Shown here piece by piece: positions 8,654 through 45,043 of a stretch of 52,716 nucleotides of DNA. The stretch lies in sequence record MN158210.1; one strand, given 5' to 3'. The translations under genes and the position numbers were made by a program. Each line of letters opens with the position of its first letter. Within the stretch, counting starts at the first letter, position 1. Source of the DNA: Escherichia phage BEK12A. The notes below the pieces were generated by a model. The model ran no database searches, was not told the origin of the DNA, and saw only the letters and a program-made list of their open reading frames with translations.

Positions 8654-8657
8654 TAAA

Positions 8658-8682: not shown

Positions 8683-8700
8683 ACATCTGGAGAAAACAAA

Positions 8701-9120: not shown

Positions 9121-9491
9121 ACTACAATGAGATTGCAAGAATGGCTACTGCTGGGATTAACTTTTTCAGCGACGCTAACGGTATGTTTAAGTGCATCACG
9201 CAGCAGGGAGGAGTTGAGATTATCGGCGGAGAGGAAGTTACCAAGCCGGAGATTTCAGTGATGATAAAGGGGCTTGTTAGATCCCCGAAAACTAGAGAGG
9301 TTGACGGTGAAACAATCCGAGTAACCGACAAGTTGGGGATATTCACCAATGAAACTGAGATCAAAAATGGTTATCAGATTGAGATTGATGGCGAACGTTA
9401 TGTTGTCGTTGAAGCAAGACCAGTCAGGCAGACTAACATCACGGCGGCTTATCGTCCGATATTAAGGAGGATTGCTGTGCATGGCGGATAA
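9108..9491 (+). CDS. putative head closure / neck protein
   Basis: 127 aa, translationally coupled in the connector block. Confidence 0.4.
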
Positions 9492-10315: not shown

Positions 10316-10317
10316 TC

Positions 10318-10980
10318 ATGCACTTGCCTAATGGTTCTCAAATTTTCATCGGCGTTAATATGGGCGATCCGATTCAGGCTACGGCTATCACTAACGCTAA
10401 TGAGCCTGTATTTACAGCGACCGACACAAAAAATATCAATAAGGGTGCTTATGTTCTGATTGAAACGTCTTCGTGGGGTAAGTTGGTTAGCCGCGTGTTG
10501 CGCGTTAAGGCCGTTACAGACAATGAAAGTGTTACCCTTGAAGGTGTAGACACAACCGATCAGAGCGTGTTTCCGGCTGGTTCTAATACAGCAACCTTCC
10601 GAGAAGTAAAATCATGGGTAGAGATTCCTTGCGTACAGGATCTTGCGCAGGACGGAGGCGAGCAACAGTATTACACTTATCAGTGTTTGGCTGATGACCA
10701 GGAGCAGCAGTTACCGACCTATAAGAGCGCCGTTTCTCTTACCTACACTTTCGCGCATGAATATGATAATCCGATTTATCCGATCTTGCGCGATGCTGAG
10801 GAATCAGGCGACGTAACCGCTTTGCGTATGTATGTTCCGAAAGCTAAAGAGATGCGTTGCTGGGCTGGGGCGTTGTCTTTTAATGACATTCCACAAACCA
10901 CTATGAACGAAATCGAGACTGTTTCCCTTTCCGTATCCCTGAAAGGTCGATTTACGTTCTTATCTTCCGACATTAATTAA
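10318..10980 (+). CDS. major tail protein
   Basis: 220 aa preceded by AAGGAGGAA RBS and followed by a strong terminator; position before chaperone and tape measure. Confidence 0.6.
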   Translation: MHLPNGSQIFIGVNMGDPIQATAITNANEPVFTATDTKNINKGAYVLIETSSWGKLVSRVLRVKAVTDNESVTLEGVDTTDQSVFPAGSNTATFREVKSWVEIPCVQDLAQDGGEQQYYTYQCLADDQEQQLPTYKSAVSLTYTFAHEYDNPIYPILRDAEESGDVTALRMYVPKAKEMRCWAGALSFNDIPQTTMNEIETVSLSVSLKGRFTFLSSDIN

Positions 10981-11006: not shown

Positions 11007-11046
11007 CATTCCTGTAAAATCAATCTATCAAATAAATCAATTACAC

Positions 11047-11064
11047 TTTTAACAAAAAGTGCTA
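11047..11064 (-). promoter_or_regulatory. conserved 20-bp box, reverse orientation, directly before chaperone RBS
   Basis: TTTTAACAAAAAGTGCTA followed by CAAGGAG and ATG. Confidence 0.5.
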
Positions 11065-11079
11065 CAAGGAGAAATTAAA

Positions 11080-11394: not shown

Positions 11395-11705
11395 GGCGCG
11401 CGGTTTACCTGTTTTACCAGAAGCCACCGACAGACGCAGAGCTTGAAGCGGTCGGATTAACACGCGCCGACTACGAAGGCGAGGAGCCGCCGGAGGTTAT
11501 TTTCGATGAAAGCATGATGCAATCATGGGATGTTTTTTGTGCAATGCAAACGCAGTGGAGAAGCGCCGGATCTGGCGCTTACGGATTTGACTATAATGTT
11601 TTGCCGATGTTGTTCAGAATCTATAAAATAGAAGATGAAGAAATGGCCTTAAACGATTTGCGAATCATGGAACAAAAAGCATTAGAAATGATGCACCAAA
11701 AATAG
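11292..11705 (+). CDS. possible -1 frameshift extension of tail assembly chaperone (G/GT-like)
   Basis: the -1 frame is open from about 11292 to 11705, overlapping the 3' end of the chaperone ORF; no canonical slippery heptamer identified. Confidence 0.3.
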   Translation, partial: PRKRKTVSRLLPWVSVGARSILLRRSGWSARKGLRRAVYLFYQKPPTDAELEAVGLTRADYEGEEPPEVIFDESMMQSWDVFCAMQTQWRSAGSGAYGFDYNVLPMLFRIYKIEDEEMALNDLRIMEQKALEMMHQK

Positions 11706-11711
11706 CAATCA

Positions 11712-11735
11712 AAGCGCCTACTGGCGCTTTTTTAA
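11712..11735 (+). terminator. terminator-like hairpin
   Basis: AAGCGCCTACTGGCGCTT plus TTTTTAAT. Confidence 0.45.
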
Positions 11736-11753
11736 TATCTGGAGTAAATGAAC

Positions 11754-14678
11754 ATGGCTGATAAATACGCAGGCTTAACACTTGGCGTTGACGTGTCGCA
11801 GGTAACGAATGCTGTTAAATCATTGCAGCAGTTCAAGAAGGCCAACGACGACGCAAAGAGCAGCGTCGAGGGATTCGTTGATACTGAGGCAATCGCACGA
11901 CAGCAGGCTAAACAGCTTGCCGAGGAATTGCGCAGGCAGCGAGCGGAGTTTAGAAAAATTCAGGACTCCATTGATCCTACAGCGGCAAAAATGGATAAGT
12001 TGCGACAAGCGGCATCACAGCTTGATTCCCTTTGGAAAAAAGGCGTAGTGCCGGATGATACTTTTTTTGAGCTTGGCGCCATCTTGGAAACGCAGCAGAA
12101 TAAGCTGATCGCCACAAAGAAAGCATTAACCGAAGAAGGCCGAGCAGCAGCAGAGGAAGCGAAACAGAAAGCCCGTGCAGAGGCTGAGGCGCGTAAATTC
12201 ATCTCTGCATTGCAACAGCAAGCTGAGGCAGCAGGGAAAACCAGGGAGGAATTGCTGGAGATTCGCGCCGCGCAACTAGGGGTAAGTGCTGAAGCAGCGC
12301 CATTTATCTCGCAGATGAAAGCGCAGGATAAGCAAGCCCAAAAATTAGGCATCTCAATGGGGCAATATCGGCATGCTATGCAAATGCTTCCAGCGCAAAT
12401 CACTGACGTGGTTACTTCGCTTGCTTCCGGTATGCCTGTGTGGCTGGTTGCTATCCAGCAGGGGGGGCAGATTAAGGACTCTTTCGGCGGAATCTCTAAC
12501 ACGTTCAAAGTGTTGTTGTCGTACCTTAATCCGGTAAATGTTGGCGTTGGTGCGCTTGTTGTTTCCCTGGGTGCTTTGGTGAAAGCTGGTTATGATTCCT
12601 ACTCTTCGCAACGAAACTTGCATGAGGCGTTAGTCCTGACTGGAGGTTATGCAGGAACTAACGCGGCGCAATTCGAAAAGATGGCGCAGGACATCAACAG
12701 TAGCACGAATGCAACGATTGGAAGTATCCGCAATATTGCAACCGAGCTTGCAAGATCCGGTAAGTTTACGATTACCCAAATCAGGGCAATCACCAAAACG
12801 ACGACGCAATGGTCAGCGGTAACGGGCGAATCAAGCGGAAAGATTACGGAATACTTTAACAAGATTGCTGACGATCCGGTCAAAGGTCTTGCTAAGCTAA
12901 ACGAAGAATTTAACTTCCTGAAACAAGGCCAGCTAACCTATATCGCCGACCTTGAAAAAACCAGCGGCAAAACTGCGGCAGTAACACGTGCGACCGAGCT
13001 ATTCGCCGATGTAATGGAGCAACGCCTTGCCAACCTTGCCGATTCAGCAACGCCGTTAGAAAAGATGTGGGACGACGTGCGCAAGTGGGCTTCTGACGCC
13101 TGGGGATGGGTAGGCGATCACACAATTGGTGCGCTTAACCTGATCACTGACGTTGTGGCGGCAACGGTTGAGCAGGTTCGCTACTTGCTTAATCAGGGTG
13201 ATATTCTGATCGGTGAGTTTGTTATTTCTGCCACTAAAGCAATGCAGAACATCCCAGGACTTAGCGGTGTTGGCGATGAATTTATCAAGCAGCAGCAGGA
13301 AATCATCGACCAGAGCAAGAAGGAAAACGAAGAACTGGCGAAGTCCATCGAAGAACGCGACGCGCGAGTCAGAAATGGCGAGATGGGTTACATTGAAATG
13401 ATGCGTGAACGCGCGGCGACAGAGCAGCAGTATTCCGAGAAGACGCGCGAAGCAATCAGGAAAGAGGCCGAAGAACTGGCGAAGCGTGACAAAGCACGTT
13501 CTCAAAAGGTCAAAGTGTCGGCTGGAGACAGGATTGAGGATCAGTATCAGCGAGACATTGTTGCACTGGAGACTCAATTGCGAGTATTGAAGGAGCACGA
13601 AACTGTCATTGCATCAATCAGCCAGCAGCGCCGTGCGTTATGGACTGAGCAAGCAAAAATCCAGGTCTTGCAGGAAGCATCACAGAAACGCCAGCTTACT
13701 GACGAAGAAAAAAGCATTATTGCCAACAAGGATAAGATCCTTTCGCTGGCAGAGCAGCGGGCTATACTTGGCGACCAGATCCAGTTGCAGGATACATCAA
13801 TTAAATTCTTGCATCGTCAAAAGGAAACGCTTCAATCACTTGAGCTACAGCAAAAAGGCATGAGCGACCGAGAGACGCAAAGGGAGCTTGAACGGCAACG
13901 CATCGTAACTGACTGGCTGGCAAAAGGCGGTCAGCTTACTGATGCAAGACTCGCCGAGATGATTGATAAGATCAACGAAGTCTACGCAATGCAAGATGAG
14001 TTGAGCATGAATTCAATCGCAGGGATTGAACGCTCTACGAAAAACTGGATTGATTCGGCTATGGATTTGGGCGGTCAATTTGGTAACGTAATGACAAACG
14101 CGTTAAACGGAATTAGCGATCAGTTTGTGGAGCTATTGAGCACAGGCAAAAGCAGTTTTAAAGACTTCGCATCTTCAATCATCAAAATGATTATGAACAT
14201 CATTACGCAGTTGAGTATTGCCTACGCAATTCAGGCAGCAATGGGATGGGTTAGCGGAAGTCCTAAAACTGGCGGCGGATCTGGTCAGTCATTCCCCGTT
14301 CCGTCATTCCGTCCTCGCGGCTTCTCTGATGGCGGTTACACTGGCGACGGCGGGAAATATGAAGCGGCTGGAGTGGTTCACAAGGGTGAATTTGTCATGA
14401 CGAAGGAGGCAACGAAGCGGATCGGAGTTGGCAATCTTTACAAGCTGATGCGCGGTTATGCTAACGGCGGCGTGGTTGGTGGTTCCAGCTATAGCGGCGG
14501 TGGCATCAATGCTGGCGCGGCGCAATTCAATATCGGCGGGATTAGCGTTGATATTAACAACGGTAGCGATCCGAAGGGTATCGAAACTGGCGTTAAGATG
14601 ATCTTTACTGATATGATTAGACGTTCATGTATGCAGGGCGGGGAGGTTTACGAATTTGTTATGAGCAAGCGAGGTTGA
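11754..14678 (+). CDS. tail tape measure protein
   Basis: about 974 aa, long coiled-coil Ala/Gln/Glu-rich middle, Gly-rich C-terminal region; position after chaperone. Confidence 0.85.
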   Translation: MADKYAGLTLGVDVSQVTNAVKSLQQFKKANDDAKSSVEGFVDTEAIARQQAKQLAEELRRQRAEFRKIQDSIDPTAAKMDKLRQAASQLDSLWKKGVVPDDTFFELGAILETQQNKLIATKKALTEEGRAAAEEAKQKARAEAEARKFISALQQQAEAAGKTREELLEIRAAQLGVSAEAAPFISQMKAQDKQAQKLGISMGQYRHAMQMLPAQITDVVTSLASGMPVWLVAIQQGGQIKDSFGGISNTFKVLLSYLNPVNVGVGALVVSLGALVKAGYDSYSSQRNLHEALVLTGGYAGTNAAQFEKMAQDINSSTNATIGSIRNIATELARSGKFTITQIRAITKTTTQWSAVTGESSGKITEYFNKIADDPVKGLAKLNEEFNFLKQGQLTYIADLEKTSGKTAAVTRATELFADVMEQRLANLADSATPLEKMWDDVRKWASDAWGWVGDHTIGALNLITDVVAATVEQVRYLLNQGDILIGEFVISATKAMQNIPGLSGVGDEFIKQQQEIIDQSKKENEELAKSIEERDARVRNGEMGYIEMMRERAATEQQYSEKTREAIRKEAEELAKRDKARSQKVKVSAGDRIEDQYQRDIVALETQLRVLKEHETVIASISQQRRALWTEQAKIQVLQEASQKRQLTDEEKSIIANKDKILSLAEQRAILGDQIQLQDTSIKFLHRQKETLQSLELQQKGMSDRETQRELERQRIVTDWLAKGGQLTDARLAEMIDKINEVYAMQDELSMNSIAGIERSTKNWIDSAMDLGGQFGNVMTNALNGISDQFVELLSTGKSSFKDFASSIIKMIMNIITQLSIAYAIQAAMGWVSGSPKTGGGSGQSFPVPSFRPRGFSDGGYTGDGGKYEAAGVVHKGEFVMTKEATKRIGVGNLYKLMRGYANGGVVGGSSYSGGGINAGAAQFNIGGISVDINNGSDPKGIETGVKMIFTDMIRRSCMQGGEVYEFVMSKRG

Positions 14679-15855: not shown

Positions 15856-16586
15856 TGATTAGTGCAAAAATTAAACTTGAAATAATGCAGCACGTTAAAG
15901 AGGAATACCCTAAAGAGGCTTGCGGCGTCATAACTCAAAAGTCACGGGTACAGAAATATCACCGCATAACCAACGTGCATGACGATCCAGAAAATCATTT
16001 TGAAATGGACGCCGTAGAATACGCTGAATCGCTCGACAAAGGCGAATTAATCGCGGTGGTGCATTCCCATTGCGGTGATGGTGCTAGTACGATACCGAGC
16101 GCGCACGACTCATGTATGTGCGATGAAATGGGTGTGTCGTGGATTATAGTGTCATGGCCCGAAGGTGATATGAGAATTGTCGAGCCGCAGGAGAGGCCGC
16201 TTATCGGTCGCCCGTGGTCGCTTGGGTCGTTCGATTGCTGGGGTCTTATCATGGCGTGGCATAAACAGCACGGAGTAGTATTGAATGACTTCCGAAAGCC
16301 TTACGAGTGGTGGAAGTCAGAATATGGTGAAAATCTTTACCAGGATAATTATTTAAAAGAGGGATTTATTGAAACTAACGAGCCTCCAAAGCCTGGCGAT
16401 ATGGTTATCATGCAGCTATCATCGCCAGTCTGGAATCATGCGGGGATTTATTTGGGTAACAACCAGCTATTACATCATGCGTTTGGAAAGCTATCTCGCA
16501 TCGACTTGTATTCTGGATGGTATCAGGAGCACACTGTAAAAATTTGCCGACATAAGGATCTGAAATATGACATTGAAAGTAATTAA
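15855..16586 (+). CDS. tail assembly protein (lambda gpK-like, MPN/JAB plus NlpC/P60 peptidase)
   Basis: ATG at codon 35 of the 15753 ORF; EACGV..HSHCGDGASTIPSAHD (JAMM-like) and C/H peptidase-like residues. Confidence 0.7.
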   Translation: MISAKIKLEIMQHVKEEYPKEACGVITQKSRVQKYHRITNVHDDPENHFEMDAVEYAESLDKGELIAVVHSHCGDGASTIPSAHDSCMCDEMGVSWIIVSWPEGDMRIVEPQERPLIGRPWSLGSFDCWGLIMAWHKQHGVVLNDFRKPYEWWKSEYGENLYQDNYLKEGFIETNEPPKPGDMVIMQLSSPVWNHAGIYLGNNQLLHHAFGKLSRIDLYSGWYQEHTVKICRHKDLKYDIESN

Positions 16587-17163
16587 GCTATCTGGTTCCC
16601 TGGGTCGTAGATTTGGCGTCTTTCACAAAATGGCGGTTGACTCATACCCCGAAGCAATACGCGCGTTATCTTCCCAGGTTGAAGGGTTCAAGGACTACAT
16701 GCAAAGCGAAGTAGGATCGCGAATGAAGTATGCTGTATTCGTTGATGGAAAAAACGTTGGTCAGCATGATGAAAAATCATGGAAGTGCGCGCGAGAGGTT
16801 CGAATAGTTCCTGTTCCAACTGGTTCTAAGTCCGGCGGCCTGTTCAATGTTGTTTTTGGTGCTGTAATTATGGCTACTGCGTTCATTACTGGCGGTGCAA
16901 GCCTGGCGGCTATGGGCGCTTTTGCATCTTCCGCATTTATGATGGGTGGTGCTATCGCGCTTGGCGGTGTCATGCAAATGATCTCTCCGCAGCAGGGCGG
17001 AATGAAACTGCAAAGCCAATCAGCAGAAAACAAGCCTTCTTACGCTTTCGGCGGCGCAGTAAATACCACGGCGGCAGGTTATCCGGTTCCTTTGCCATAT
17101 GGATATAGGACAGTAGGCGGCGCGATCTGGTCGGCTGGCAGCTACGCAGAAGATAAGGCTTAA
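16567..17163 (+). CDS. tail assembly protein (lambda gpI-like)
   Basis: 198 aa with Gly/Ala-rich hydrophobic C-terminal half; synteny. Confidence 0.55.
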   Translation: MTLKVIKLSGSLGRRFGVFHKMAVDSYPEAIRALSSQVEGFKDYMQSEVGSRMKYAVFVDGKNVGQHDEKSWKCAREVRIVPVPTGSKSGGLFNVVFGAVIMATAFITGGASLAAMGAFASSAFMMGGAIALGGVMQMISPQQGGMKLQSQSAENKPSYAFGGAVNTTAAGYPVPLPYGYRTVGGAIWSAGSYAEDKA

Positions 17164-17348: not shown

Positions 17349-20300
17349 ATGGCTGAAAATATGATAACTGGCAGTAAGGGCGGAAGCAAAAAGCCATACG
17401 TGCCAAAAGAGATGGAAGATAACCTGATCTCGATAAACAAGATTAAAGTTTTGCTGGCTGTATCTGATGGCGAATGCGATCCAGATTTCACGTTGCGTGA
17501 TCTTTATCTTGATGATGTTCCGGTTATTGCCAGCGATGGCACTGTTAACTATGAGGGGGTAACGGCTGAATATAGACCAGGTACACAGACGCAAGATTAC
17601 ATCCAGGGGTTTACTGACACATCAAGCGAGGTGACAGTTTCGCGAGATATTACAGCAGACAATCCCTATATTATCTCTGTAACAAATAAAAATCTTTCTG
17701 CAATCAGAATCAAGATTCTGATGCCAGTTGGCATAAAACAGGAGGATAACGGCGATCTTGTTGGTGTAAGGGTTCAATATGCCGTAGATATGGCTGTTGA
17801 TGGCGGTTCTTATAACGAGGTTATGAGAGATGTAATTGATGGCAAGACAAGATCAGGATATGACCGCAGCAGAAGGATTGATCTTCCTAAGTTTGATGAG
17901 CGCGTTTTAATCAGGGTCAAGCGACTGACTCCAGACAGCACATCTTCAAAGGTGACTGATAAAATCAAACTGCAAAGTTACGCTGAGGTTGTGGATGCAA
18001 AATTCCGTTATCCTCTGACTGGCCTTGTATTCGTAGAATTTGACAGCGAATTGTTTCCTACGCAAATCCCTAACATTTCTATAAAAAAGAAATGGAAGAT
18101 TATTAATGTGCCAAGCAACTATGATCCAATATCTAGAGAATATCACGGGTCATGGGATGGGACTTTTAAAAAAGCGTGGTCAAATAATCCTGCTTGGGTT
18201 CTTTATGATCTGGTAACTAATCAGCGTTATGGACTTGACCAGCGAGAGTTAGGAATACAGATCGACAAGTGGAGCTTATACGAGGCTGGTGTTTACTGTG
18301 ATCAGAAAGTTCCAGACGGTAAGGGCGGTACAGAGCCTCGCTACCTATGCGATGTGGTGATCCAGAATCAGGTTGAGGCTTATCAGCTAATCCGTGACAT
18401 TTGCTCAATCTTTCGCGGAATGAGCTTTTGGAATGGAGAGAGCTTATCAATCGTAATTGATAAACCGCGCGATCCATCATACGTGTTTACTAATGAAAAC
18501 GTCATCAACGGTGATTTTCAGTACACAGCAGCAAGCGAAAAAAGCATGTACACGCAATGTAATGTGACGTTTGACGACGAACAAAACATGTATCAGCAGG
18601 ACGTAGAGGGGGTTTTTGATACTGAGGCGGCATTACGATTTGGATACAATCCAACAAGCATTACAGCGATCGGGTGTACACGCAGGAGCGAAGCGAATCG
18701 TCGCGGTCGGTGGGTTTTGAAAACAAACCTTAGAAGCACTACTGTAAACTTTGCTACCGGACTAGAGGGGATGATTCCATCCATAGGTGATGTGATTGCT
18801 ATCGCTGATAATTTTCAGAGCAGCAATCTAACGCTAAATCTTTCGGGCCGAGTAATGGAAGTTTCAGGCTTGCAAGTTTTCGTTCCGTTTAAGGTTGATG
18901 CGCGTCCTGGTGATTTTATTATCATCAACAAGCCGGACGGAAAGCCAGTTAAGCGAACGATCTCAAAGGTGAGCGCAGACGGAAAAACCATTGAGTTAAA
19001 TATTGGCTTTGGTTTTGATGTTAAGCCTGATACTGTTTTTGCGATTGACCGTACTGACCTTGCGTTGCAGCAATACGTTGTGACAACTATCAGCAAGGGT
19101 GATGACGAAAACGAGTTTACCTATTCAATCACGGCTGTAGAGTACGATCCGAACAAATACGACGAGATTGATTATGGAGTAAACATTGATGACAGGCCAA
19201 CTTCAATTGTTCAGCCTGACGTGATGGCAGCGCCTGAGAACGTGCAGATCTCTTCTTATTCTCGCGTCGTGCAGGGTGTAAGCGTTGAAACTATGGTTGT
19301 GTCGTGGGAAAAAGTGCCTTATGCATCGCTCTATGAAATGCAGTGGCGTAAAGGTGATGGAAACTGGCTGAATACACCACAGACCGCAAACAAAGAAATT
19401 GAGGTTGAAGGTATTTATTCAGGTAACTACCAAGTAAGGGTGAGATCTGTTTCTGCTTCCGGTTCTACGTCGCCGTGGTCAAAGATTGCAACCGCCACCC
19501 TGACAGGTAAAGTTGGCGAGCCAGGAGCGCCGATTAATCTTACAGCTTCTGATAATGAAGTTTTTGGCATTCGTGTCAAATGGGGTATGCCGGAAGGATC
19601 GGGCGATACGGCTTACATTGAGCTTCACCAATCGCCAGATGGGACGGTGGAAAACTCAAGTTTGCTTACGCTGATCCCGTATCCTCAATATGAGTATTGG
19701 CATAGCACGTTACCAGCGGGTCAAGTTGTATGGTATAGAATCCGTAGCGTTGACAGGATCGGCAACGTTTCCGGCTGGACTGACTTTGTTCGCGGCATGG
19801 CGTCAGATGATGTTGAATCTGTTTTAGGCGACATTCTGGACAAGATTTTTGATACCGAAGCGGGTCAAGAAATCAAAGAGAACGCCATAGACAGTGCAAA
19901 CAAAATCAAAGACCAGGCGCAATCAATCATCCAGAACGCATTGGCAAACGATGCCGATGTGAAGTGGACGCGAGTACAAAACGGAAAGCGTAAGGCTGAA
20001 TATGGTCATGCACTGGAGCTTATTGCTAACGAAACGGAGGCGCGAGTAACTCAAATCGAAGAGTTAAAGGCGTCAATTGATGAAGATATAGTTTCAAGTA
20101 TCAAAACCGTTCAGGAAGCGATTGCCAATGAATCAGAGACGCGAGCTACTCAAGTTCAGCAGCTTGATTCTAAATTTACGAAGGAAATAGACGGCGTAAA
20201 ACGAGATACGGCTGCAAGCATTGGCGAGGTAAGGCAAACCATTACCAATGAATCAGAAGCGCGTGCTCAAGCCGTTCAGCAGCTTGACGCTAAGTTCACG

Positions 20301-27350: not shown

Positions 27351-27370
27351 ATAGCACTTTTTGCTAATGA
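27351..27370 (+). promoter_or_regulatory. conserved 20-bp box (variant), opposite orientation to adjacent tail fiber gene
   Basis: ATAGCACTTTTTGCTAATGA immediately upstream of the fiber RBS on the other strand. Confidence 0.4.
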
Positions 27371-30986: not shown

Positions 30987-31405
30987 TGGCTATAACTGAT
31001 AAAGGCGATTATCTTGAGTTTTACGAAAGGGATCCAACCGACACGAGAAGGGAAGTTAATCACCAGATAGATAGTTTTCAGTGGTTGACTTATGCTCATC
31101 CTTATTTGCTGGCGTGGCATACGGTAAACGAGAATGAGAAGTCTAAAGCAACGGCGATGATTGATCAGCAGTCCGGCTTGGTTAAGGGAGTAAGCGATTT
31201 CATCATCCTGATTGGTTTAAACGGAAAATACCCCTTTGCAGCGATTGAGATCAAACGAGTGAATAAATCAGGCAAGGGGAAAGCATCACCAGTCAGCGAT
31301 GAACAAAAGGCTTTTTTGCGTCGCGTTCGCAGCTTAGGAGGATTCGCTGCGGTAGCCTACGGATTCAATCAGTTTAAGTTGGCTATTGAATACATGCTTA
31401 AATAG
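30986..31405 (+). CDS. VRR-NUC domain nuclease
   Basis: GVSDFIILIG...AAIEIKR arrangement (D..E.K) typical of VRR-NUC. Confidence 0.6.
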   Translation: MAITDKGDYLEFYERDPTDTRREVNHQIDSFQWLTYAHPYLLAWHTVNENEKSKATAMIDQQSGLVKGVSDFIILIGLNGKYPFAAIEIKRVNKSGKGKASPVSDEQKAFLRRVRSLGGFAAVAYGFNQFKLAIEYMLK

Positions 31406-31446
31406 CACTTTTTGTTAAAACTGGCGCGATGGATTGCGCCATAATA
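31402..31446 (+). promoter_or_regulatory. conserved box - hairpin - ATAATA module
   Basis: ATAGCACTTTTTGTTAAAAC, hairpin GGCGCGATGGATTGCGCC, ATAATA; stop TAG of upstream gene inside box. Confidence 0.6.
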
Positions 31447-31474
31447 CAGAAAAACAAAACACGGGGTTACTAAA

Positions 31475-31909
31475 ATGAAACTTAAATCATCTTTACTTAT
31501 CGCAGCTTTGGCATTAACAGGTTGTGGATTTAAAAAGACAGTGCACACTGATTTTAATATCAACTCTTGCACAAACTTAACAATGAATGTTGTGATGCAT
31601 TCAGCATCAAAGGCATACCATGATTCATGGTATAACAAAAACAGAGACACGATCAAATATATCGCTTACAGTGAGTGCAAGTCATCAATCGAAAACAATT
31701 TAATAGAAAACATCGGCACGAAATATAATTTTGTACGCGAAAAGGAAAAGTACATCACCCCATCAAAGCCTAGTGATATTGATATTTCAAATGTTCTTTC
31801 GGAAGTTCCAGAGATAATAACCTATGCTCACGCTGTAGGTTCAAAGCTCGCAACTACATCAAAGGTTGAGACTATCGAGATCTCAAAGAAGGCAAACGAA
31901 GTTTTTTAA
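31475..31909 (+). CDS. lipoprotein of unknown function
   Basis: MKLKSSLLIAALALTGCGF signal peptide with lipobox. Confidence 0.55.
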   Translation: MKLKSSLLIAALALTGCGFKKTVHTDFNINSCTNLTMNVVMHSASKAYHDSWYNKNRDTIKYIAYSECKSSIENNLIENIGTKYNFVREKEKYITPSKPSDIDISNVLSEVPEIITYAHAVGSKLATTSKVETIEISKKANEVF

Positions 31910-31925: not shown

Positions 31926-32651
31926 ATGGCTAAATATATTTTAGATAAAGACACCCATGACGCATTCGTTAGCTTTGAGCAGTTGGAGAGAGAAACGTTT
32001 ATAGGGAATGCCCTTGCAACTGGAGGCCATTACCAGGCAGTAAAGCCAAATCAATATTATAAGGTAAGCGGCAACCGATACGCTGGAAGCACCACGCCGG
32101 ACGTTGTGCGAGATATGTGGAGCACGCCTCAAGAGATCGTGGAGTGGATGGAATCAGAATTTGGTGAATACGATCTCGACGCGGCAGCAAGCCAGGAAAA
32201 CGCAGTTTGCGAGAAGTTCTATAGCAAGGAAACAAACTGCTTAAAGCGTTGGTGGGGTAGCAACAAGCACGTATGGCTTAACCCGCCGTACAGCAACCCA
32301 ACTCCATTTATCAAGAAAGCAATTGAGCAAATGGAGCACAACAACCAAATTGATGTTTTGTTGCCAGCCGACAACTCTACAGCATGGTTTTATGAGTCGC
32401 AGAAAAACGCGGCTGAAATCATCTGGATCACTGGCGAGGTTTACGAAGAGGGTGGAGTAGAATACTCCCGCACCGGAAGAATCGCCTTTGTGTCTGGATT
32501 GACTGGCGAGCCTGTGCAGGGCAACAACAAGGGGAGCGTGATTTTTGTCATGCGCAAACTTAAAGAAGGAGAGGAGCAGAAAACGCGATACGTTAAGATC
32601 AGCGATATTTGCCCTTCTGTAACCGAACGCCGCGCGCGCAAACGGAGCTAA
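31926..32651 (+). CDS. dam: DNA N6-adenine methyltransferase (Dam-like)
   Basis: catalytic NPPY motif in HVWLNPPYSNP; start at second ATG after RBS (first ATG at 31920 possible). Confidence 0.75.
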   Translation: MAKYILDKDTHDAFVSFEQLERETFIGNALATGGHYQAVKPNQYYKVSGNRYAGSTTPDVVRDMWSTPQEIVEWMESEFGEYDLDAAASQENAVCEKFYSKETNCLKRWWGSNKHVWLNPPYSNPTPFIKKAIEQMEHNNQIDVLLPADNSTAWFYESQKNAAEIIWITGEVYEEGGVEYSRTGRIAFVSGLTGEPVQGNNKGSVIFVMRKLKEGEEQKTRYVKISDICPSVTERRARKRS

Positions 32652-32655
32652 CACG

Positions 32656-32913
32656 ATGAAAAAAGAGAGAAGCGTTTATTTAAATGAAACTGGCGAATGG
32701 TTGTTATTTCGCGCTATGGTGTGCGATGCACTTGATAAAAATCCTAACGTGAAAAAGATGATTGATTGCGATCCGTGGGAATTTTCAAGCGCATTAGATA
32801 TGAGCTTTGAGGAGACAAGAAAACTCCCGCTTGAAAAATGGCACGAACAAATCAGAAATGACATGCAAGAGTTTGTCGATTCGTGGAATTTTCAGCACGG
32901 AATGATCCACTAA
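32656..32913 (+). CDS. hypothetical protein
   Basis: 85 aa ORF ending in TAA that abuts the conserved box. Confidence 0.45.
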   Translation: MKKERSVYLNETGEWLLFRAMVCDALDKNPNVKKMIDCDPWEFSSALDMSFEETRKLPLEKWHEQIRNDMQEFVDSWNFQHGMIH

Positions 32914-32957
32914 TAGCACTTTTTGTTAAAACGCCCGGCCTAGTGTCGGGCATAATT
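32914..32957 (+). promoter_or_regulatory. conserved box - hairpin - CATAAT module
   Basis: ATAGCACTTTTTGTTAAAAC, CGCCCGGCCTAGTGTCGGGC, ATAATT; inverted twin at 36135-36173. Confidence 0.6.
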
Positions 32958-32988
32958 ATTTCAACGAAGCAAACATGAGGAAATAAAA

Positions 32989-33168
32989 ATGGTGGTATTC
33001 GATAAACGCGCTTTTAATCTTGCTCAAGAAGTAGCAAAAGGTTCAGTGGATGGCGGTTCAAAGGAAGGATTCCAGTTTGATTGGGAGATCGCAATGTTTT
33101 TACTGAAAGTTGCATACGGTCACGCACCAATTGAACAAGCGGAGGCATATTATAAGCATGAAGGTTGA
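32989..33168 (+). CDS. small hypothetical protein (59 aa, not in ORF track)
   Basis: ATG preceded by GAGGAAAT; stop overlaps next start (ATGA). Confidence 0.3.
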   Translation: MVVFDKRAFNLAQEVAKGSVDGGSKEGFQFDWEIAMFLLKVAYGHAPIEQAEAYYKHEG

Positions 33169-33400
33169 GCAAGGAAGAGATGCGGTATGGAATCACGCTA
33201 AAGAATGCGGTATTGCCGACGATATAAAGAAGATCGCGCAATACTTTGATATTGCAGATGTGAGCATAATTAGCGGCGACAAGATGACTTTCCTCAAGGA
33301 AAGGCCGCGAAAAATGGTAAGAGTTCCAGCAGTTCCAACAAAAATTGATTTCAAAGAGGCAATGGCTAAAATCCGAGAGCCTCGCAAATATTATAAATGA
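33158..33400 (+). CDS. hypothetical protein
   Basis: ATG at codon 17 of the 33110 ORF; about 80 aa. Confidence 0.4.
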   Translation: MKVEQGRDAVWNHAKECGIADDIKKIAQYFDIADVSIISGDKMTFLKERPRKMVRVPAVPTKIDFKEAMAKIREPRKYYK

Positions 33401-33494
33401 GGATAGTTATCATGTGGCGCTTGTTTGTTCTACCGTTACCCGTTATCATCGCTGTTACAGTTATGTACCATATAGTAATGAGATAGGTAGCAGA

Positions 33495-34610
33495 ATGAAA
33501 AATGTAAAAATTACAGATGAGCAATTCAAGATCGAACGGGCGGCAGGTAAGACATATAAACAGATCGCTCAAGAGTACGGAATGAATGTGAGAAGCGTCG
33601 AGCGTCGCGCGGCGCGTCTTGCAAAGCAAGGACAGTTATCGACCATTGGAGCGCCTGGTTTTGGTGTTCATGGTGAGTCAGTAATGACCGACAAAGAAGG
33701 CAACATAATCCTCAAGTGGACCAAAACCAGCAAGGACAAAGAGCAATTAGAAGCATTGATGCGCGCAGCAATGGAGGCGTTTAGCGAGGAAGTGCCGCGA
33801 TTAGATCCAGTTCCATTGCAGGAGCGTGACTATAATGAAACGCTTTCATTGTATCCGATCTTTGACATGCACTTAGGCGCTATGGCCCATAAGCACGAAT
33901 GCGGCGAAAATTGGGATACTGCGACGGCGGAGCGCGTTATGAATAACTTTATCGACTATGCTTTGATGTGCGCACCTGACAGTGAAAAGGCTGTTATCCT
34001 GATTGGTGGCGACATGCTTCATAGCGATGGCCTGGAGGCTGTGACCCCTGCAAGCGGTCACGTACTTGATCAAGATAGCCGATATGCAAAATTGGTTTAC
34101 GTTGCAATACGTGCAATGCGCCGCGCAATTAATAAAATGCTGTTAAAGCATAAACATGTTGAGGTCCAGATCGTTGAGGGCAATCACGACCAATCAGGAA
34201 TGATTTGGCTACGCGCAGCAATGGCGGCAGCATATGAGAACGAGCCGCGCGTTTACGTTGATGTTTCTCCTCGCGTTGTTCACCACACGCAATACGGAAA
34301 AACTTTCCTTGCGTACCATCACGGGCACACAGTGCGCAAACCTGAGACTTTGCTAATGATGTGCGCGTCAGATTGGCGGGAGGACTTCGGAAACTCAAAA
34401 ACGATGTATGCGCACGTAGGGCACTGGCATCACCAGACCGTGACGGAAACGTCGCTTGGGATCGTGGAGGTACATAGCACCCTGGCGGCAAAAGACGCAT
34501 ACGCCGCGCGCGGTGGCTGGAGATCTCGACGCCGTGCAGCGGTTATCATTTACGACAAAGAGCATGGAGAAGTTGGGCGATTTGTTCACTATCCAGAAAT
34601 GATGAATTGA
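33495..34610 (+). CDS. metallophosphoesterase with N-terminal HTH-like domain
   Basis: calcineurin-like motifs DMHLG, GGDMLH, GNHD, HHGH, GHWHH; N-terminal YKQIAQEYGMNVRSVERR helix-turn-helix-like. Confidence 0.6.
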   Translation: MKNVKITDEQFKIERAAGKTYKQIAQEYGMNVRSVERRAARLAKQGQLSTIGAPGFGVHGESVMTDKEGNIILKWTKTSKDKEQLEALMRAAMEAFSEEVPRLDPVPLQERDYNETLSLYPIFDMHLGAMAHKHECGENWDTATAERVMNNFIDYALMCAPDSEKAVILIGGDMLHSDGLEAVTPASGHVLDQDSRYAKLVYVAIRAMRRAINKMLLKHKHVEVQIVEGNHDQSGMIWLRAAMAAAYENEPRVYVDVSPRVVHHTQYGKTFLAYHHGHTVRKPETLLMMCASDWREDFGNSKTMYAHVGHWHHQTVTETSLGIVEVHSTLAAKDAYAARGGWRSRRRAAVIIYDKEHGEVGRFVHYPEMMN

Positions 34611-34658
34611 TGAATTTTTATTTAAATCAATGACAAATTAAATCAAAAACTTGCAAAG

Positions 34659-34686
34659 GGGCGGCGTTTGTCGCCTCTTTTTTTTG
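34659..34686 (+). terminator. rho-independent terminator
   Basis: GGCGGCGTTTGTCGCC hairpin plus TCTTTTTTTTG. Confidence 0.55.
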
Positions 34687-34755
34687 TTTAATTTTTTACC
34701 ATGTGCGTTTATCATGCGGTCAATATATTGACTTTAATTAATATGGAGAATAAAA

Positions 34756-34971
34756 ATGAAAGATTTTATTAACGCAGCTACCGCCGGATCTGGCGGTTCA
34801 TCTATCGCAAGCGCCGCTACAGGGCAGTTAACCATTGCTATTGCCAGCTTTGTTTTAATGGCTGCATTCGGTGCATGGGGCGCTTACCTTCGCTGGCGTG
34901 ATAGTAAAAAATTCCACGAGGCGATCGAAAAAGGTGATATTCAAAAAGCTATTGAAATCAGGGGCAAGTAA
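34756..34971 (+). CDS. holin
   Basis: 71 aa, hydrophobic TM segment and charged C-terminus, immediately upstream of endolysin. Confidence 0.6.
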
Positions 34972-35462
34972 TGAGCATAAAGAACAAGGTAGCGGCTGCG
35001 GCCTTTGGCGTTGCGGTTGCCTTGACTTCTCCACTTCTTGAAGAGATCGAAGGGGTAAGATACAAGCCATACAAAGATATTGCGGGAGTATGGACGGTTT
35101 GCGCAGGAATCACCGGACCTGATGTTATCCTGGGGAAAACGTACACTAAAAAAGAGTGTGATGCTTTGTTGGCTAAGCATATCCAGGTTGCTAAAAAGGA
35201 AGTTGACAAGCAAGTTAAGGTTGACATTCCTGATAGTATGCGTGCAGCAATGTACTCATTCACTTACAATGCAGGTGTGGGAGCTTTCAGAAATTCAACA
35301 ATGCTGAAACTCATCAACCAGGGGAAATTAAACGAGGCTTGCGATCAGCTTTATCGTTGGACGTATTACCATAACCCCAAAACAGGAAAGCGCGAGAAGT
35401 CTAAAGGCTTACTTAACAGGCGCAAGGTCGAATACAAATATTGCACGATGGATCTGAAATGA
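34971..35462 (+). CDS. endolysin (lysozyme, glycoside hydrolase family 24-like)
   Basis: catalytic E in LEEIEG and T4-lysozyme-like [16 protein letters not shown] block; ATGA overlaps. Confidence 0.75.
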
Positions 35463-35854
35463 TGAAGAAATTTTTACTTACACCAATCGCAATGGCGGTG
35501 ATCTTGTCTGGATGTTCAAGCGTTACGCCACTGACCGGATTAATCGGCAGTAAGCCGGAAATAACAGCACAGGCTGGCGCGGAGAACGTTAAGCAGACAG
35601 TTGGCATTACATCAAAGCAGGACGCCAGCACAAAACAGGAAACCACAATAAAGGAATCTGCGGTTGACAAGGTGGACACGTCCAGCAAGAAGGATTTCAC
35701 AACATCAACCATTCAGGCCAATACCATCAAGGCAGACAAAATTCAGGTCGTGCAGGGTAATAACGGCAGATGGTACGATCCAATAATCATATGCGTGGTT
35801 GTGTTCATTGTGCTGATTTGTCTTTACTGGAGGGAAAAGAAAAAGGAGGCTTAA
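35459..35854 (+). CDS. unimolecular spanin (lipoprotein with C-terminal transmembrane anchor)
   Basis: N-terminal lipobox AVILSGCSS and C-terminal [18 protein letters not shown] in a single 131-aa protein; last gene of lysis cassette. Confidence 0.65.
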
Positions 35855-35870
35855 TGCCTCCTTTATTTTT
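35844..35870. terminator. terminator between convergent operons
   Basis: AGGAGGCTTAATGCCTCCT plus TTTATTTTT. Confidence 0.55.
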
Positions 35871-36093
35871 ATGCGTCTGGCCACATATGAGTTTCGTTTG
35901 TTGGCTTGTTCGATTCGTCGTGCTGCCTTACTTCAATGCTGCAAGTGTCGCCGTACAGTTCTGCAATCTTGCGCTCATTTTCAACCGCCGATTGCTCGCT
36001 CCATCCAAAATCCCTGTCGTAAATTGTCGGTATTTCAGCAGAAGATCCGTTGTCATGATTATATACGCGAACTACTAAAAACTTGCTGGACAT
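35869..36093 (-). CDS. hypothetical protein
   Basis: 74 aa; RBS AAAAGG; last gene of leftward early operon. Confidence 0.45.
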   Translation of the reverse strand: MSSKFLVVRVYNHDNGSSAEIPTIYDRDFGWSEQSAVENERKIAELYGDTCSIEVRQHDESNKPTNETHMWPDA

Positions 36094-36129
36094 AATTTTA
36101 CCTTTTGGTTGTTTCGTTTCGATGAAACA

Positions 36130-36173
36130 AATATACCCGACACTAGGCCGGGCGTTTTAACAAAAAATGCTAT
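36130..36173 (-). promoter_or_regulatory. conserved box - hairpin - TATATT module (leftward)
   Basis: minus strand ATAGCATTTTTTGTTAAAAC, GCCCGGCCTAGTGTCGGG, TATATT, then CATCGAAACGAA box. Confidence 0.6.
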
Positions 36174-36364
36174 TCCATACGCTTTACCGTAACCAGTAAT
36201 ACACCATCATCATTGCATAAAACATGTTCAGTGGTGCTAAAAGCGCGCATATCTGAATAAAGTAGCGTAAGTAAAGCATGAATAAAATCCTCATGTGATA
36301 TTGAATTTACGGCGCAGTGCTTCAAGATCTTGTCTATTAGCTTTTGCCTGGAACAATTCATCAT
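36170..36364 (-). CDS. hypothetical small protein (start uncertain)
   Basis: stop TAG lies inside the conserved box like other early genes; 5' end overlaps upstream gene; possible RBS GGGGAGA. Confidence 0.3.
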   Translation of the reverse strand: MMNCSRQKLIDKILKHCAVNSISHEDFIHALLTLLYSDMRAFSTTEHVLCNDDGVLLVTVKRME

Positions 36365-36686
36365 CGCCCATCTCCCCTATTCTCGCCATATCCCTGATCC
36401 AGTCGTTGCGCATACCATCCAGGCTATACAATTCGAATCCGAAAGGCCGCTTTGATGATCCTTTGGACCAGTATTTTCCGCAGACCCCATCTATATAACC
36501 AGCCGTCATCATTCTTGCGCAAAATTCCTTAGATGCAAGGCTGGCGAACATTCGCGGCGTAAGTCCGGCGGCCCGCGCGAGCCGCTCGCATTCTCTATGC
36601 TGATAGATAAATTTGGCTATGTGCTGCCTGTTAAACCAGTCGTATGACTCACACCATTTATACAGATCAAGCAAAAACATAATCAT
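36291..36686 (-). CDS. hypothetical protein
   Basis: 131 aa, start overlaps stop of ATPase gene. Confidence 0.45.
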   Translation of the reverse strand: MIMFLLDLYKWCESYDWFNRQHIAKFIYQHRECERLARAAGLTPRMFASLASKEFCARMMTAGYIDGVCGKYWSKGSSKRPFGFELYSLDGMRNDWIRDMARIGEMGDDELFQAKANRQDLEALRRKFNIT

Positions 36687-38335: not shown

Positions 38336-38553
38336 TTGATCCGCTCTATTGCAACCAGAAGTCGATCAGGCTGGCGGTCGCTGTAGCATTCTCCTGTAAT
38401 CCCATCCTTAAACGTAAAGTAAAGCGCCTTATGATATGAAAAACCAATCAGCCAACCTACCGACGTTTTTTTGATGGGCCTGACTATATCGCCAGGCTTG
38501 AAGGTTTTTGTTGCTGAATTAGTAACCTTATAGCGATATTCAGTCTTGATCAT
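38332..38553 (-). CDS. hypothetical protein
   Basis: ATG at codon 40 of the 38670 ORF, overlapping HNH stop; about 73 aa; stop TAG in box. Confidence 0.4.
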   Translation of the reverse strand: MIKTEYRYKVTNSATKTFKPGDIVRPIKKTSVGWLIGFSYHKALYFTFKDGITGECYSDRQPDRLLVAIERIK

Positions 38554-39061
38554 AAGGCTTCTCGCTTCCGTGGTTTTCGTGGAATCCGTACTTTTTCCAA
38601 ATAGCATCTCTTGATGATACAGCGCTATCAATTGATGCATGATAACCACCAGAAATACACCTGCCATCAACAGTTACTTGTACGCACCATTTAGACACCC
38701 TCTTATTCCACATCACGCCAGTATAACCAGATTTATTTGTCGATCTCCTTGTGTGGTTTTGTGAGTTTTGTTTTCTTGTGACAAGCCGGAGGTTTTCGAT
38801 TCTATTGTCATCTCTTATGTGATTCACGTGATCTATCTCCATTCCTTTTGGTATTGTTTTTCCATGCATCCACCAAACAATCCAATGCGCCGGATACTCT
38901 CTGCCACCAATACCTATACGTCTATATCCGTTTTTAGTTATATAACCTGCCTCATCGCCAATTTTTGCCCGTCTTCCTGATGGGCTTTTCCATAATAGAC
39001 GACCATTTTCATATATAAATAAATTTAGAAGTACTTGCCTTGAAATTCCGCTATTGCACAT
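38540..39061 (-). CDS. HNH homing endonuclease
   Basis: HWIVWWMHG...EIDHVNHIRDDNRIENLRLVTRKQNSQN. Confidence 0.8.
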   Translation of the reverse strand: MCNSGISRQVLLNLFIYENGRLLWKSPSGRRAKIGDEAGYITKNGYRRIGIGGREYPAHWIVWWMHGKTIPKGMEIDHVNHIRDDNRIENLRLVTRKQNSQNHTRRSTNKSGYTGVMWNKRVSKWCVQVTVDGRCISGGYHASIDSAVSSRDAIWKKYGFHENHGSEKPYDQD

Positions 39062-39252: not shown

Positions 39253-39283
39253 CGTTTATTTCTCCTTTCGTTTCGGTGAAGTG

Positions 39284-43541: not shown

Positions 43542-43575
43542 TGCTATCTCCTGAGCGGTTCGTTTCGATGTGTGT

Positions 43576-43619: not shown

Positions 43620-43644
43620 TTGACGGTTAGCGCCAGGATTGTGA

Positions 43645-43745
43645 TCGAAATAATCAAAAGTAATCATTCGTAATCAAATCACGTCAAAATGATGATTGCC
43701 TTTGCAAATTTTATGAGAAAAGTAATCACGTTTAATCATTGGTTG
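43645..43745. repeat. phased TAATCA direct repeats (iteron-like)
   Basis: TAATCA at about 43651, 43661, 43671 (10-bp phasing) and again near 43723 and 43734. Confidence 0.5.
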
Positions 43746-43889
43746 CAGGGGAGATAGTGAAACCTTCCCCTCTTGCCTCACTTTTTTGCCTGGCTGTCAG
43801 TGGTTGTTATGTTCCGTTCCCTCCTGTTCTTTTGTTGACCTTCCGCAAAATACGATAACAAAAAATAACAAACAATACCTATATAATAC

Positions 43890-44030
43890 ATTGAAAAATA
43901 AGGATTATTTATTTATATGTATCTATATATTCTCTTTTGTTATCTTGGTTATTGTGGTATTTGGTGGGGGTATATAGTTTTTGTGTATCTGTATGTGTGT
44001 ATGGGTATGTAGGGGCATATATATCTATAT
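43890..44030. repeat. AT-rich noncoding repeat region B (homologous to 22255-22460)
   Basis: TATTTATTTATATGTATCTATAT..TTTTGTTATCTTGG..TTGTGG..TTTGGTG..GTATCTGTATGTG. Confidence 0.6.
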
Positions 44031-44158
44031 GGCGCTTTCCGCGAGAAAACTTCGATAACAGGCAATGATAACATTGATTTATAAGGAAAAATAACTCCTA
44101 TATTGTTATTGTGCCACCATATAAAATTGATAAAACACGCAGGAACAAGAAAAAACAG

Positions 44159-44187
44159 TTGACACATTAAATAGCATTATTGATAAT
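44159..44187 (+). promoter_or_regulatory. consensus sigma-70 promoter (TTGACA-17-GATAAT) for rightward early operon
   Basis: perfect -35, 17-bp spacer, good -10, about 30 nt upstream of 44216 start. Confidence 0.7.
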
Positions 44188-44215
44188 GCCCACACCTAAC
44201 AACCAGGAGGCAGAA

Positions 44216-44680
44216 ATGAGCGAGCAATCATTCACTGACACGCTGCGCCGTGCCGCTATTATGCTGGCTAATGGCGAGGAAGAGACGATCAAGATTCCTG
44301 ACGCGTATTTGCAGGTCCACATGTTCGGCAAGAAGTCGGCAAGCAATCCGGCGGCCTACATTCGCCAGATCATGAGTCGAGTGCCAGAAGTCGCCGAGCG
44401 GGGGCGCGTATCCGTTACCCGTGGCGTTTACGGGCCGGAAGATGAAAACTTCGGTAGCACTTTCTACGAGGTGCGCATTGTTGAAGGCCGTCGCAAGGTT
44501 TACAACAAAGAGGCACTGGAAAGGGCAGTACGCCAGGCTAAGCGCAAGGTTGCAGAGGCGATCATTGATATGTCACCAAACCTGGCAAACTATGCGCCGG
44601 AAGAGTACGAAACATTATCAAAGGCCGTCGCTGACTTTCACGCGATGATCAAAAAAACTTTCCTGGAGGATGAGCAATGA
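44216..44680 (+). CDS. hypothetical early protein
   Basis: ATG at codon 13 of the 44180 ORF with RBS AGGAGG; about 154 aa. Confidence 0.5.
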   Translation: MSEQSFTDTLRRAAIMLANGEEETIKIPDAYLQVHMFGKKSASNPAAYIRQIMSRVPEVAERGRVSVTRGVYGPEDENFGSTFYEVRIVEGRRKVYNKEALERAVRQAKRKVAEAIIDMSPNLANYAPEEYETLSKAVADFHAMIKKTFLEDEQ

Positions 44681-44949
44681 AAAAGGCATTAATCAGCGTT
44701 TTGGTGGCAATGGCATTCCTGACCGGATGTAAAGAGGATGGCGCGCATGTTGGCAATGTGCAGATGGCTAACCCTGGCGATAACTACAGCGTAAGGGAGC
44801 TATTCACCGTTGACGGTTGCACCGTTTACCGATTCTATGACGATCGCACTGTTTACTTCACCAACTGCAAGGGCACTACTAGCTGGGGAGTGTCGAAAAG
44901 CAATGGCAAAGGCACGAAGACAGAACATATGACCGTCGAGACAAAATAG
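44677..44949 (+). CDS. lipoprotein of unknown function
   Basis: MKKALISVLVAMAFLTGCKE lipobox signal; ATGA coupling. Confidence 0.5.
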   Translation: MKKALISVLVAMAFLTGCKEDGAHVGNVQMANPGDNYSVRELFTVDGCTVYRFYDDRTVYFTNCKGTTSWGVSKSNGKGTKTEHMTVETK

Positions 44950-44989
44950 CACTTTTTGTTAAAACTCGAAAACGATAACCAGACATAAT
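44946..44989 (+). promoter_or_regulatory. conserved box - CATAAT module
   Basis: ATAGCACTTTTTGTTAAAAC, 18 bp, CATAAT, then hairpin GGGCGGCACGGCGTCGCCC; stop TAG in box. Confidence 0.6.
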
Positions 44990-45043
44990 AAATCACATAG
45001 GGCGGCACGGCGTCGCCCACAAAACCAATCAGGAGAAAGCACC

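Follow-up and report, generated by a model that had tools for sequence, protein, structure and literature searches.

In 2024 a 21-nucleotide (nt) direct repeat with the consensus aaATAGCACnnnTTGnTAAAA was described in phage TLS, where about 20 copies per genome lie in the direction of transcription, roughly 76 nt ahead of start codons, and the same repeat was noted in T1, Rtp and Rogue1 (PMC11447400). Its role was left open by the authors, whose suggestions were an UP-like element, an enhancer site and a stoperator (PMC11447400). In T4-type phages, promoter-early stem-loop (PeSL) cassettes mediate modular shuffling, and their stem-loop is thought to insulate neighbouring cassettes (PMC2839356, PMC4122927). 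The marbox of MarA, SoxS and Rob has the consensus GCAHWWWWTGYYAAA, with the elements GCAC and YAAA (PMC6900184), and class II marbox sites lie in forward orientation over the -35 position, clustered near -41, in promoters that have a canonical -10 and no recognisable -35 (PMC10268841, PMC12052159, PMC9638938). Here we describe the genome of Escherichia phage BEK12A (MN158210.1), whose entire 52,716 nt are called the window below, and in particular an inverted pair of near-identical units, arms A and B, that bracket a 3.2-kb segment containing the lysis genes. The arms are paralogous copies of a repeated, predicted early/middle promoter cassette of the T1-like phages (Drexlerviridae), whose box is the TLS repeat, resembles the marbox and is separated from the -10 by a spacer that can fold into a stem-loop.

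Region 32500-36600 of the window is 100% identical to Escherichia phage BEK26 (MN158216.1, 52,716 bp; Drexlerviridae, Tempevirinae, Warwickvirus), a T1-like virulent siphovirus whose record is offset from the window by a rotation of 22,177 bases, and about 50 other coliphages are 95-99% identical over the same region. The box occurs 16 times in the window at three or fewer mismatches, where none is expected, and 18 times with a looser consensus. When all copies are aligned by the box they share one order of elements: the box, an 18-nt variable spacer, a -10-like hexamer (CATAAT, TATAAT, TATATT or TACATT), a short conserved leader (approximately CATCGAAACGA), a ribosome-binding site (RBS) and ATG. 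Across 195 distinct units collected from relatives, the hexamer follows the box at an offset of 18 nt in 176 and of 17 nt in 12, and 15 of the 18 units in the window are co-oriented with the following gene, which starts 16-38 nt past the -10. The original prediction that the unit is a promoter-type element agrees with this fixed architecture. The bases at the -35 position read AAAACN, and a sigma-70 promoter scan called no -35/-10 pair at the box units, both arms included. The TTGTTA of the box was considered as a sigma-70 -35 and rejected, as it lies 22 nt from the -10, which is too distant, and the scan calls no promoter there. A search of the whole window against Rfam returned no family. 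The published account of the TLS repeat (PMC11447400) does not mention the fixed 18-nt distance to a -10, hairpins in the spacer, a match to the marbox or an inverted pair of units, all of which are described here.

The two arms (Table 1), as given by the repeat finder, are 62 nt long and 89% complementary, with a longest exact run of 31 nt, and their similarity reaches beyond the unit reported earlier to include the -10 hexamer (CATAAT in A, TATATT in B) and the T-rich start region. The boxes differ at a single position, and the 18-nt spacer downstream of the box, GCCCGGCCTAGTGTCGGG, is identical at 32933-32950 (A) and 36136-36153 (B). The inverted pair of near-identical units that had been noticed, with its identical hairpin spacer and one difference in the box, is therefore real, its start having been placed 1 nt off. 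The stop codon of an upstream 85-amino-acid (aa) open reading frame (ORF) at 32911-32913 overlaps box A, and that of an upstream 64-aa ORF falls inside box B. Spacer identity over 153 pairs of units averages 5.0 of 18 positions (standard deviation 2.1) and the next best pair reaches 10, so that the A/B pair, at 18/18, is a clear outlier. Of the claim that the hairpins of the other copies are unrelated to this one, the low mean identity upholds the part that concerns sequence; a strong hairpin is present in only about half of the copies. Concerted evolution of the whole unit was rejected, since A and B of BEK26 agree at 53/60 positions over the 60-nt unit, which is not above A/B pairs taken across genomes, some of which reach 54/60; the unusual likeness is confined to the spacer.

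In arm A the stem-loop occupies the 18-nt spacer and the first base of the -10, after which comes ATAATTATTT. The sense fold is the more stable in both arms, at -13.0 versus -10.4 kcal/mol for the antisense fold in A and -10.9 versus -5.3 kcal/mol in B. Hairpins confined to the spacer (dG of -5 or below) are found in 58% of the 195 units, compared with 4.5% of control windows. Within the A/B family 97% of cells are paired over 20 distinct sequences, and double-sided compensatory changes are seen in 3/7 stem pairs (G:C to A:U at 21:39, C:G to A:U at 24:36 and C:G to U:A at 27:33), while the pair 26:34 is divided 10:10 between A-U and G.U and the loop varies freely. Family-wide, the sense fold is the more stable in 108 units and the antisense fold in 65, the sequences compared being orthologous and not independent. 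Tolerance of G.U together with the more stable sense fold indicates the sense strand, and the A/B hairpin is under selection as a structure, probably in the form of sense-strand RNA.

A loose terminator scan flagged both the A and the B hairpin as terminator-like. Unlike the other spacer hairpins, these two have a conserved T-rich stretch behind the stem; the tails, ATAATTATTT and ATATTTGTTT, satisfy the scan and begin with AUA. The stems start 20 nt past the upstream stop codons, and the upstream genes are co-directional. The three units that have no co-directional gene upstream (28913, 43619 and 22192) have no hairpin. In TLS-like phages the hairpin at the orthologous site A is unrelated in sequence, and its true T-tract runs into the -10 (CCGCTACGGCGGG-TTTTG-TATTAT). 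The 18-mer GCCCGGCCTAGTGTCGGG itself, followed by C(C)TTTT, makes up a canonical terminator after a stop codon in seven unrelated viral contigs of IMG/VR (L002, L003, L005, L006, L008, L009 and L011), which represent at least three different contexts; two of the seven were compared with GenBank phages by BLAST and gave no match. Because the hairpin lies upstream of the cassette's own start, it would be present only in transcripts that read in from the upstream operon. Most likely it would terminate or attenuate this upstream read-through, or protect the 3' end that results. Facing each other, A and B would, with the bidirectional terminator between them, bound an insulated convergent block in which the phosphoesterase and lysis genes are read rightward and a small ORF leftward.

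The core of the box, GCACTTTTTGTTAAA, agrees with the marbox consensus at 15/15 positions in both arms. Over the whole window that consensus is matched perfectly 13 times and with one mismatch 7 times, where 2.4±1.5 matches are expected at one mismatch or fewer. In the Escherichia coli micF promoter, read from an E. coli genome, the marbox ACAGCACTGAATGTCAAAAC is followed by 18 nt, TAGAAT and then 7 nt to the start; the spacing equals that of the phage units, and 15/20 bases of the box are identical. Consensus match, forward orientation, a micF-like distance to the -10 and a canonical -10 without a -35 are thus all found in the phage units, whose start is a predicted one. Like class II promoters such as micF, the units have an asymmetric 20-nt box, with GCAC and YAAA, that overlaps the -35 and takes its place; its centre lies near -41, and 18 nt separate it from the -10. 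They differ from the class II promoters of the host in that about 18 near-perfect copies are carried by a virulent phage, many with a GC-rich stem-loop in the spacer.

Host sigma-70 RNA polymerase is probably assisted at these units by a monomeric marbox-binding activator, either Rob, MarA or SoxS of the host or an unrecognised phage analogue. A homologue of MarA, SoxS or Rob encoded by the phage was considered and rejected: phmmer and hmmsearch of all 615 six-frame ORFs, with MarA, SoxS and Rob sequences as queries, gave a best match of E = 0.05, and no AraC-type family is among the 25 of 35 Pfam families listed for 60 non-structural proteins. As no AraC-family protein was found in the phage, the binder would be host Rob, MarA or SoxS or a phage protein that has gone unrecognised. 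The sole near-consensus sigma-70 promoter seen, at 44159-44187 (TTGACA-17-GATAAT), drives as its first gene that of a DUF7174 protein (44216-44680), for which only two homologue clusters were found and whose AlphaFold model has a pLDDT of 76, with a confidently modelled N-terminal domain; this protein was rejected as a MarA-like candidate because it has no significant fold match in the PDB. Among ten small proteins of the leftward early block, none matched a DNA-binding Pfam family, and a literature search found no paper linking MarA, SoxS or Rob to the Drexlerviridae. The promoter at 44159-44187 is contained in an AT-rich, gene-free divergent region of about 600 nt (43620-44215) that divides the leftward and rightward early blocks.

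Both sites occur, in the same orientation, in every Warwickvirus and Hanrivervirus examined, two groups with a DNA identity of about 76%. Across these genomes the A and B spacers agree at 10-18 of 18 positions, and in Hanrivervirus the differences between A and B are mainly compensatory pairs. Site B (ACCCGATCTTGTATCGGG) is kept in still more distant genera, and site A varies among genera. The pair, judged from these alignments, predates the split between Warwickvirus and Hanrivervirus, and the suggestion of a recent duplication has to be given up, as a pair with 10-18/18 spacer identity is present in both. Close relatives show a mosaic of alleles. GCCCGGCCTAGTGTCGGG stands at both sites in BEK26, tonijn, PeterMerian, tiwna, Poky and SLUR29; JLBYU26, vB_EcoS-95 and L014 have the loop ATTTT at site A and GCCCGGCCTAGTGTCGGG at site B; tunus has GCCCGGCCTAGTGTCGGG at A and TCCCGACCTTGTGTCGGG at B; and SECphi27 combines the ATTTT loop at A with TCCCGACCTTGTGTCGGG at B. 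The exact hairpin is found at one site only in JLBYU26, vB_EcoS-95, L014, tunus and L012. Site B of BEK26 differs from that of tunus and SECphi27 at three positions, all three of which match the A allele, and these changes would fit a short-patch exchange. The B alleles are linked to differences in their flanks at 36000-36300, which makes exchange between phages at least part of the history. On this comparative evidence the near identity of A and B stems from old common ancestry, from selection for a paired stem and, within the lineage of BEK26, from a small number of changes or short-patch exchanges.

The original prediction also allowed for exchange of modules at the units, and here the comparison of genomes speaks for it. 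Arm A marks the end of a block with about 33% divergence (32600-32900) in SLUR29 and tunus, and the start of another with about 47% divergence (33000-33100) in JLBYU26, vB_EcoS-95, Phunderstruck and SECphi27. BEK26 has an extra 144-aa ORF (31475-31909; inserted stretch 31446-31903) between the -10 of unit 31402 and the 5' untranslated region of the Dam methyltransferase gene, and this ORF is missing from tonijn and several IMG/VR relatives. L010 has two extra small ORFs (61 and 62 aa) at 11654-12140, enclosed by a direct pair of box units, and BEK26 has one unit at this place (44946-44990); the difference is an insertion or deletion of a cassette with the repeated boxes at its ends. The cassettes, as conserved islands amid variable genes, also act as junctions for homologous exchange between phages, as shown for several junctions in these alignments. 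In this they recall the PeSLs, which are likewise small repeated elements, a promoter with a terminator-type stem-loop, between early genes and at the junctions of insertions, deletions and replacements. In PeSLs, however, the stem-loop adjoins a sigma-70 promoter that has -35 and -10 hexamers and an AT-rich region upstream, whereas here the stem-loop is inside the promoter, between box and -10; PeSL mini-circles have been demonstrated for T4-type phages, whereas the junctions here are known from genome comparison; and the A/B pair is inverted, whereas PeSLs are direct.

It had been proposed that the inverted repeats might mediate inversion. A site-specific switch or frequent homologous recombination would then flip the 3.2-kb segment and give two isomers of the genome. 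The inverted repeat is a genuine one, with its 62 nt and 31-nt exact run, the phage encodes an ERF-type recombinase and an exonuclease, and, with both arms being inward-facing promoters, every gene would still stand behind a promoter in the inverted isomer. Nevertheless, such flipping is very improbable, although rare isomers may exist within a phage stock. Orientation was read at both sites in 14 GenBank relatives and in the IMG/VR loci that have both sites, and it is the same throughout; in total, a strand switch is absent in 55/56 related loci, and the exception, L049, is scrambled elsewhere. Over at least 80% of a query that spans both junctions, 103 GenBank records are collinear, and the spacers of the two arms differ in several relatives. 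With the exact hairpin at one site only in several genomes and no orientation variant found, the proposal fails the test that was originally set for it. L049 was dismissed as a carrier of the inverted segment, its mixed-strand BLAST matches coming from a scrambled helicase region outside the arms. In this 53,145-bp IMG/VR genome the helicase region downstream of the lysis genes (8100-10400) is shuffled, duplicated and inverted relative to BEK26, either by misassembly or by a real rearrangement, and this is unrelated to the A and B arms. No invertase or resolvase is found in the PHROGs matches of all ORFs in and around the segment, nor among the Pfam families listed for 60 non-structural proteins, and an invertase-driven switch was rejected on this ground and for the lack of orientation variants. 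The locus resembles the G segment of Mu, the C segment of P1 (Gin/Cin) and Salmonella hin in having a few kilobases between short inverted repeats, but it differs from them in that no invertase gene, orientation variants or alternative tail-fibre exons are found and the repeats are promoters. Least probable of all, and close to negligible, is that the pair has no function as a pair and reflects a hairpin shared by chance or a very recent duplication. The presence of the exact allele at a single site in some relatives would suit this view, whereas 18/18 identity against 5.0±2.1 for other pairs, and a likeness of A and B kept across genera with compensatory changes, do not; the copies are related by descent or exchange, and the fallback of chance sharing fails on the compensatory evolution of the stem.

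The stem-loop might also act as DNA within the promoter, as a cruciform, a stiffened spacer or an aid to opening, and so tune promoter strength with no role in RNA. The fixed register of the hairpin between box and -10 across many different units could be read in this way, yet the same register follows from a limit of space, with 19 nt free between the conserved elements. MarA is reported to distort base pairing beside its flgB site (PMC12781870), which would suit a DNA-level role, as would the -10 hexamer that lies in the hairpin loop of four other units. The 10:10 alternation of A-U and G.U and the conserved G.T wobbles, on the other hand, favour one strand where a cruciform needs both, and half of the family functions without a hairpin; we regard this explanation as unlikely. 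Somewhat less likely still is that the hairpin and the complement of the box (the stem, then GUUUUAAC on the opposite strand) end antisense transcripts, with the arms as outer fences. Every spacer hairpin is directly followed by GTTTTAACAAAAAG on the antisense strand, and convergent units could each receive the read-through of the other. The antisense stems are nonetheless weaker in both arms, as G.T becomes A.C, sense folds are the more stable family-wide, and a bidirectional terminator already lies between the units. Promoters of the phage N4 virion RNA polymerase likewise have a stem-loop within a phage promoter; an N4-type hairpin promoter was rejected because neither the annotation of BEK26 nor the account of TLS (PMC11447400) includes a virion or single-subunit RNA polymerase, and because the stem sequence changes from unit to unit and is missing from half of them.

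Taken together, we favour, with moderate confidence, the interpretation that A and B are old paralogous promoter cassettes of marbox type whose hairpins attenuate read-through and which would insulate a gene block that does not flip. A broader proposal is more tentative, and we would put its chances somewhat short of even: that the whole early/middle programme of T1-like phages, with about 18 promoters per genome in many genera, consists of class II marbox promoters that work through host Rob, MarA or SoxS or a phage mimic, and that their spacers embed terminator-type stem-loops, giving self-insulating, recombination-prone, PeSL-like cassettes of which the A/B pair is one instance.

Several points weigh against these interpretations. 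The marbox assignment draws on sequence and geometry only, and T1-like phages form plaques on laboratory E. coli that is under no stress, a state with low levels of MarA and SoxS and with most Rob inactive. Promoter activity, termination at the hairpins and insulation of the block are likewise deduced from sequence. The stems are followed by imperfect U-tracts, AUAAUUAUUU and AUAUUUGUUU, each of which opens with AUA, and the A and B hairpins are not among the terminator predictions deposited with phage Sip. In BEK26 the hairpin is confined to the spacer in only 5/18 units (31402, 32913, 36173, 39327 and 49296); those of 31402, 39327 and 49296 are without T-rich tails, and in four further units, 38335 (-), 45940 (+), 47797 (+) and 50590 (+), the hairpin spans the -10, so the hairpin may have more than one role. 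The comparison of sense and antisense stability suffers from the shared descent of its sequences, and the 18/18 identity needs just three changes from a SECphi27-type B, which may have arisen by point mutation instead of conversion. The four hairpins across the -10 are strong, hold the hexamer in the loop (e.g. GGGCCA-GATATAA-TGGCCC) and have no T-rich tail.

The genes between the arms are those that had been claimed, namely the small ORFs, phosphoesterase, holin, endolysin, spanin and one leftward gene (Table 1). P_A and P_B are predicted convergent promoters, P_A serving the two small ORFs, the phosphoesterase and, past the terminator that follows it, the lysis genes, and P_B the leftward ORF. 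Within 34655-34756 a hairpin has an 11-bp stem followed by T8, and neither type of promoter was seen ahead of the holin gene. With no promoter before the holin gene and a terminator-like hairpin upstream, expression of the lysis genes would need read-through of that terminator.

Table 1. Features of the two arms and of the segment between them (window coordinates)
Feature	Coordinates	Strand	Basis or remark
Arm A, complete cassette of P_A (box, hairpin in the spacer, -10 and T-rich region at the start)	32912..32973	+	repeat finder
Box A, ATAGCACTTTTTGTTAAAAC	32913..32932	+	box scan
Stem-loop A, GCCCGGC CTAGT GTCGGGC; 7-bp stem, one G.T wobble, 5-nt loop	32933..32951	+	fold, covariation
-10 hexamer CATAAT of P_A	32951..32956	+	18 nt past box; predicted start ~7-8 nt downstream
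First small ORF, 59 aa, RBS and ATG at 32989	32989-33168	+	behind P_A
Second small ORF, 80 aa	33158-33400	+	behind P_A
DNA-repair exonuclease/phosphoesterase	33414-34610	+	behind P_A
Strong intrinsic-terminator-like hairpin in the phosphoesterase/holin gap	34655..34680	+	terminator scan; annotated terminator in phage Sip
Holin	34756-34971	+	lysis cassette 34756..35854
Endolysin	34971-35462	+	lysis cassette
Rz-like spanin	35459-35854	+	lysis cassette
Bidirectional terminator-like hairpin where the convergent units meet	35842..35864	.	repeat finder, terminator scan, phage Sip comparison
Leftward 74-aa ORF (phrog_27210), no assigned function	35869..36093	-	behind P_B
Arm B, promoter cassette P_B (box, stem-loop, -10, T-rich tail)	36113..36174	-	repeat finder
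-10 TATATT of P_B	36130-36135	-	sequence reading
Stem-loop B, GCCCGGC CTAGT GTCGGGT; tail TGTTTC	36135-36153	-	fold, terminator scan
Box B, ATAGCATTTTTTGTTAAAAC	36154-36173	-	sequence reading

Elsewhere in the window, most units have a leader motif of approximately CA(T/A)CGA(A/C)AACGA about 8-22 nt past the -10 and ahead of the RBS (e.g. 43560-43575 and 39265-39280), which is also present in relatives and could be a translational or RNA-processing signal. Three box copies are antisense to neighbouring late or structural genes, at 7284-7303 (-), 11046-11065 (-) and 27351-27370 (+). The copy at 11046 adjoins the RBS of a plus-strand gene, and 18 nt past it on the minus strand lies a -10, TAGATT, that would yield a transcript of about 40 nt running into a bidirectional terminator; antisense RNA, a roadblock and an activator site are candidate roles for it. 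BEK26 has several homing-endonuclease (HNH) genes, one at 38540-39061 of the window and others at 16363-16884, 17823-18350, 31067-31558 and 33089-33571 of its record. The gene at 38540-39061 is missing from tonijn and L010, and the HNH genes jointly explain part of the larger genome of BEK26. Twenty unannotated GenBank records labelled 'Campylobacter phage' (host C. jejuni), including MG065641, MG065643 and MG065681, are 78-80% identical to this coliphage region, and probably represent mislabelled or carried-over coliphages.

The A/B inverted repeat is in itself ordinary, two paralogous promoter cassettes in facing orientation, and nothing about it points to an inversion switch. The identity of the cassette is of more interest, as a class II promoter of marbox type whose spacer embeds a stem-loop would be a kind so far undescribed for the Drexlerviridae, and the fit to the marbox and micF makes the function of the T1-like repeat published in 2024 experimentally approachable. 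A promoter-spacer stem-loop kept by compensatory evolution would be a compact overlap of a terminator with the next promoter, and the junction data carry the PeSL idea of 'mobile regulatory cassettes' past the T4-type phages. If the assignment is true, phage growth in a common family that causes trouble in industry would be tied to the antibiotic and oxidative-stress regulators of its host, with consequences for phage therapy combined with antibiotics, salicylate or bile salts.

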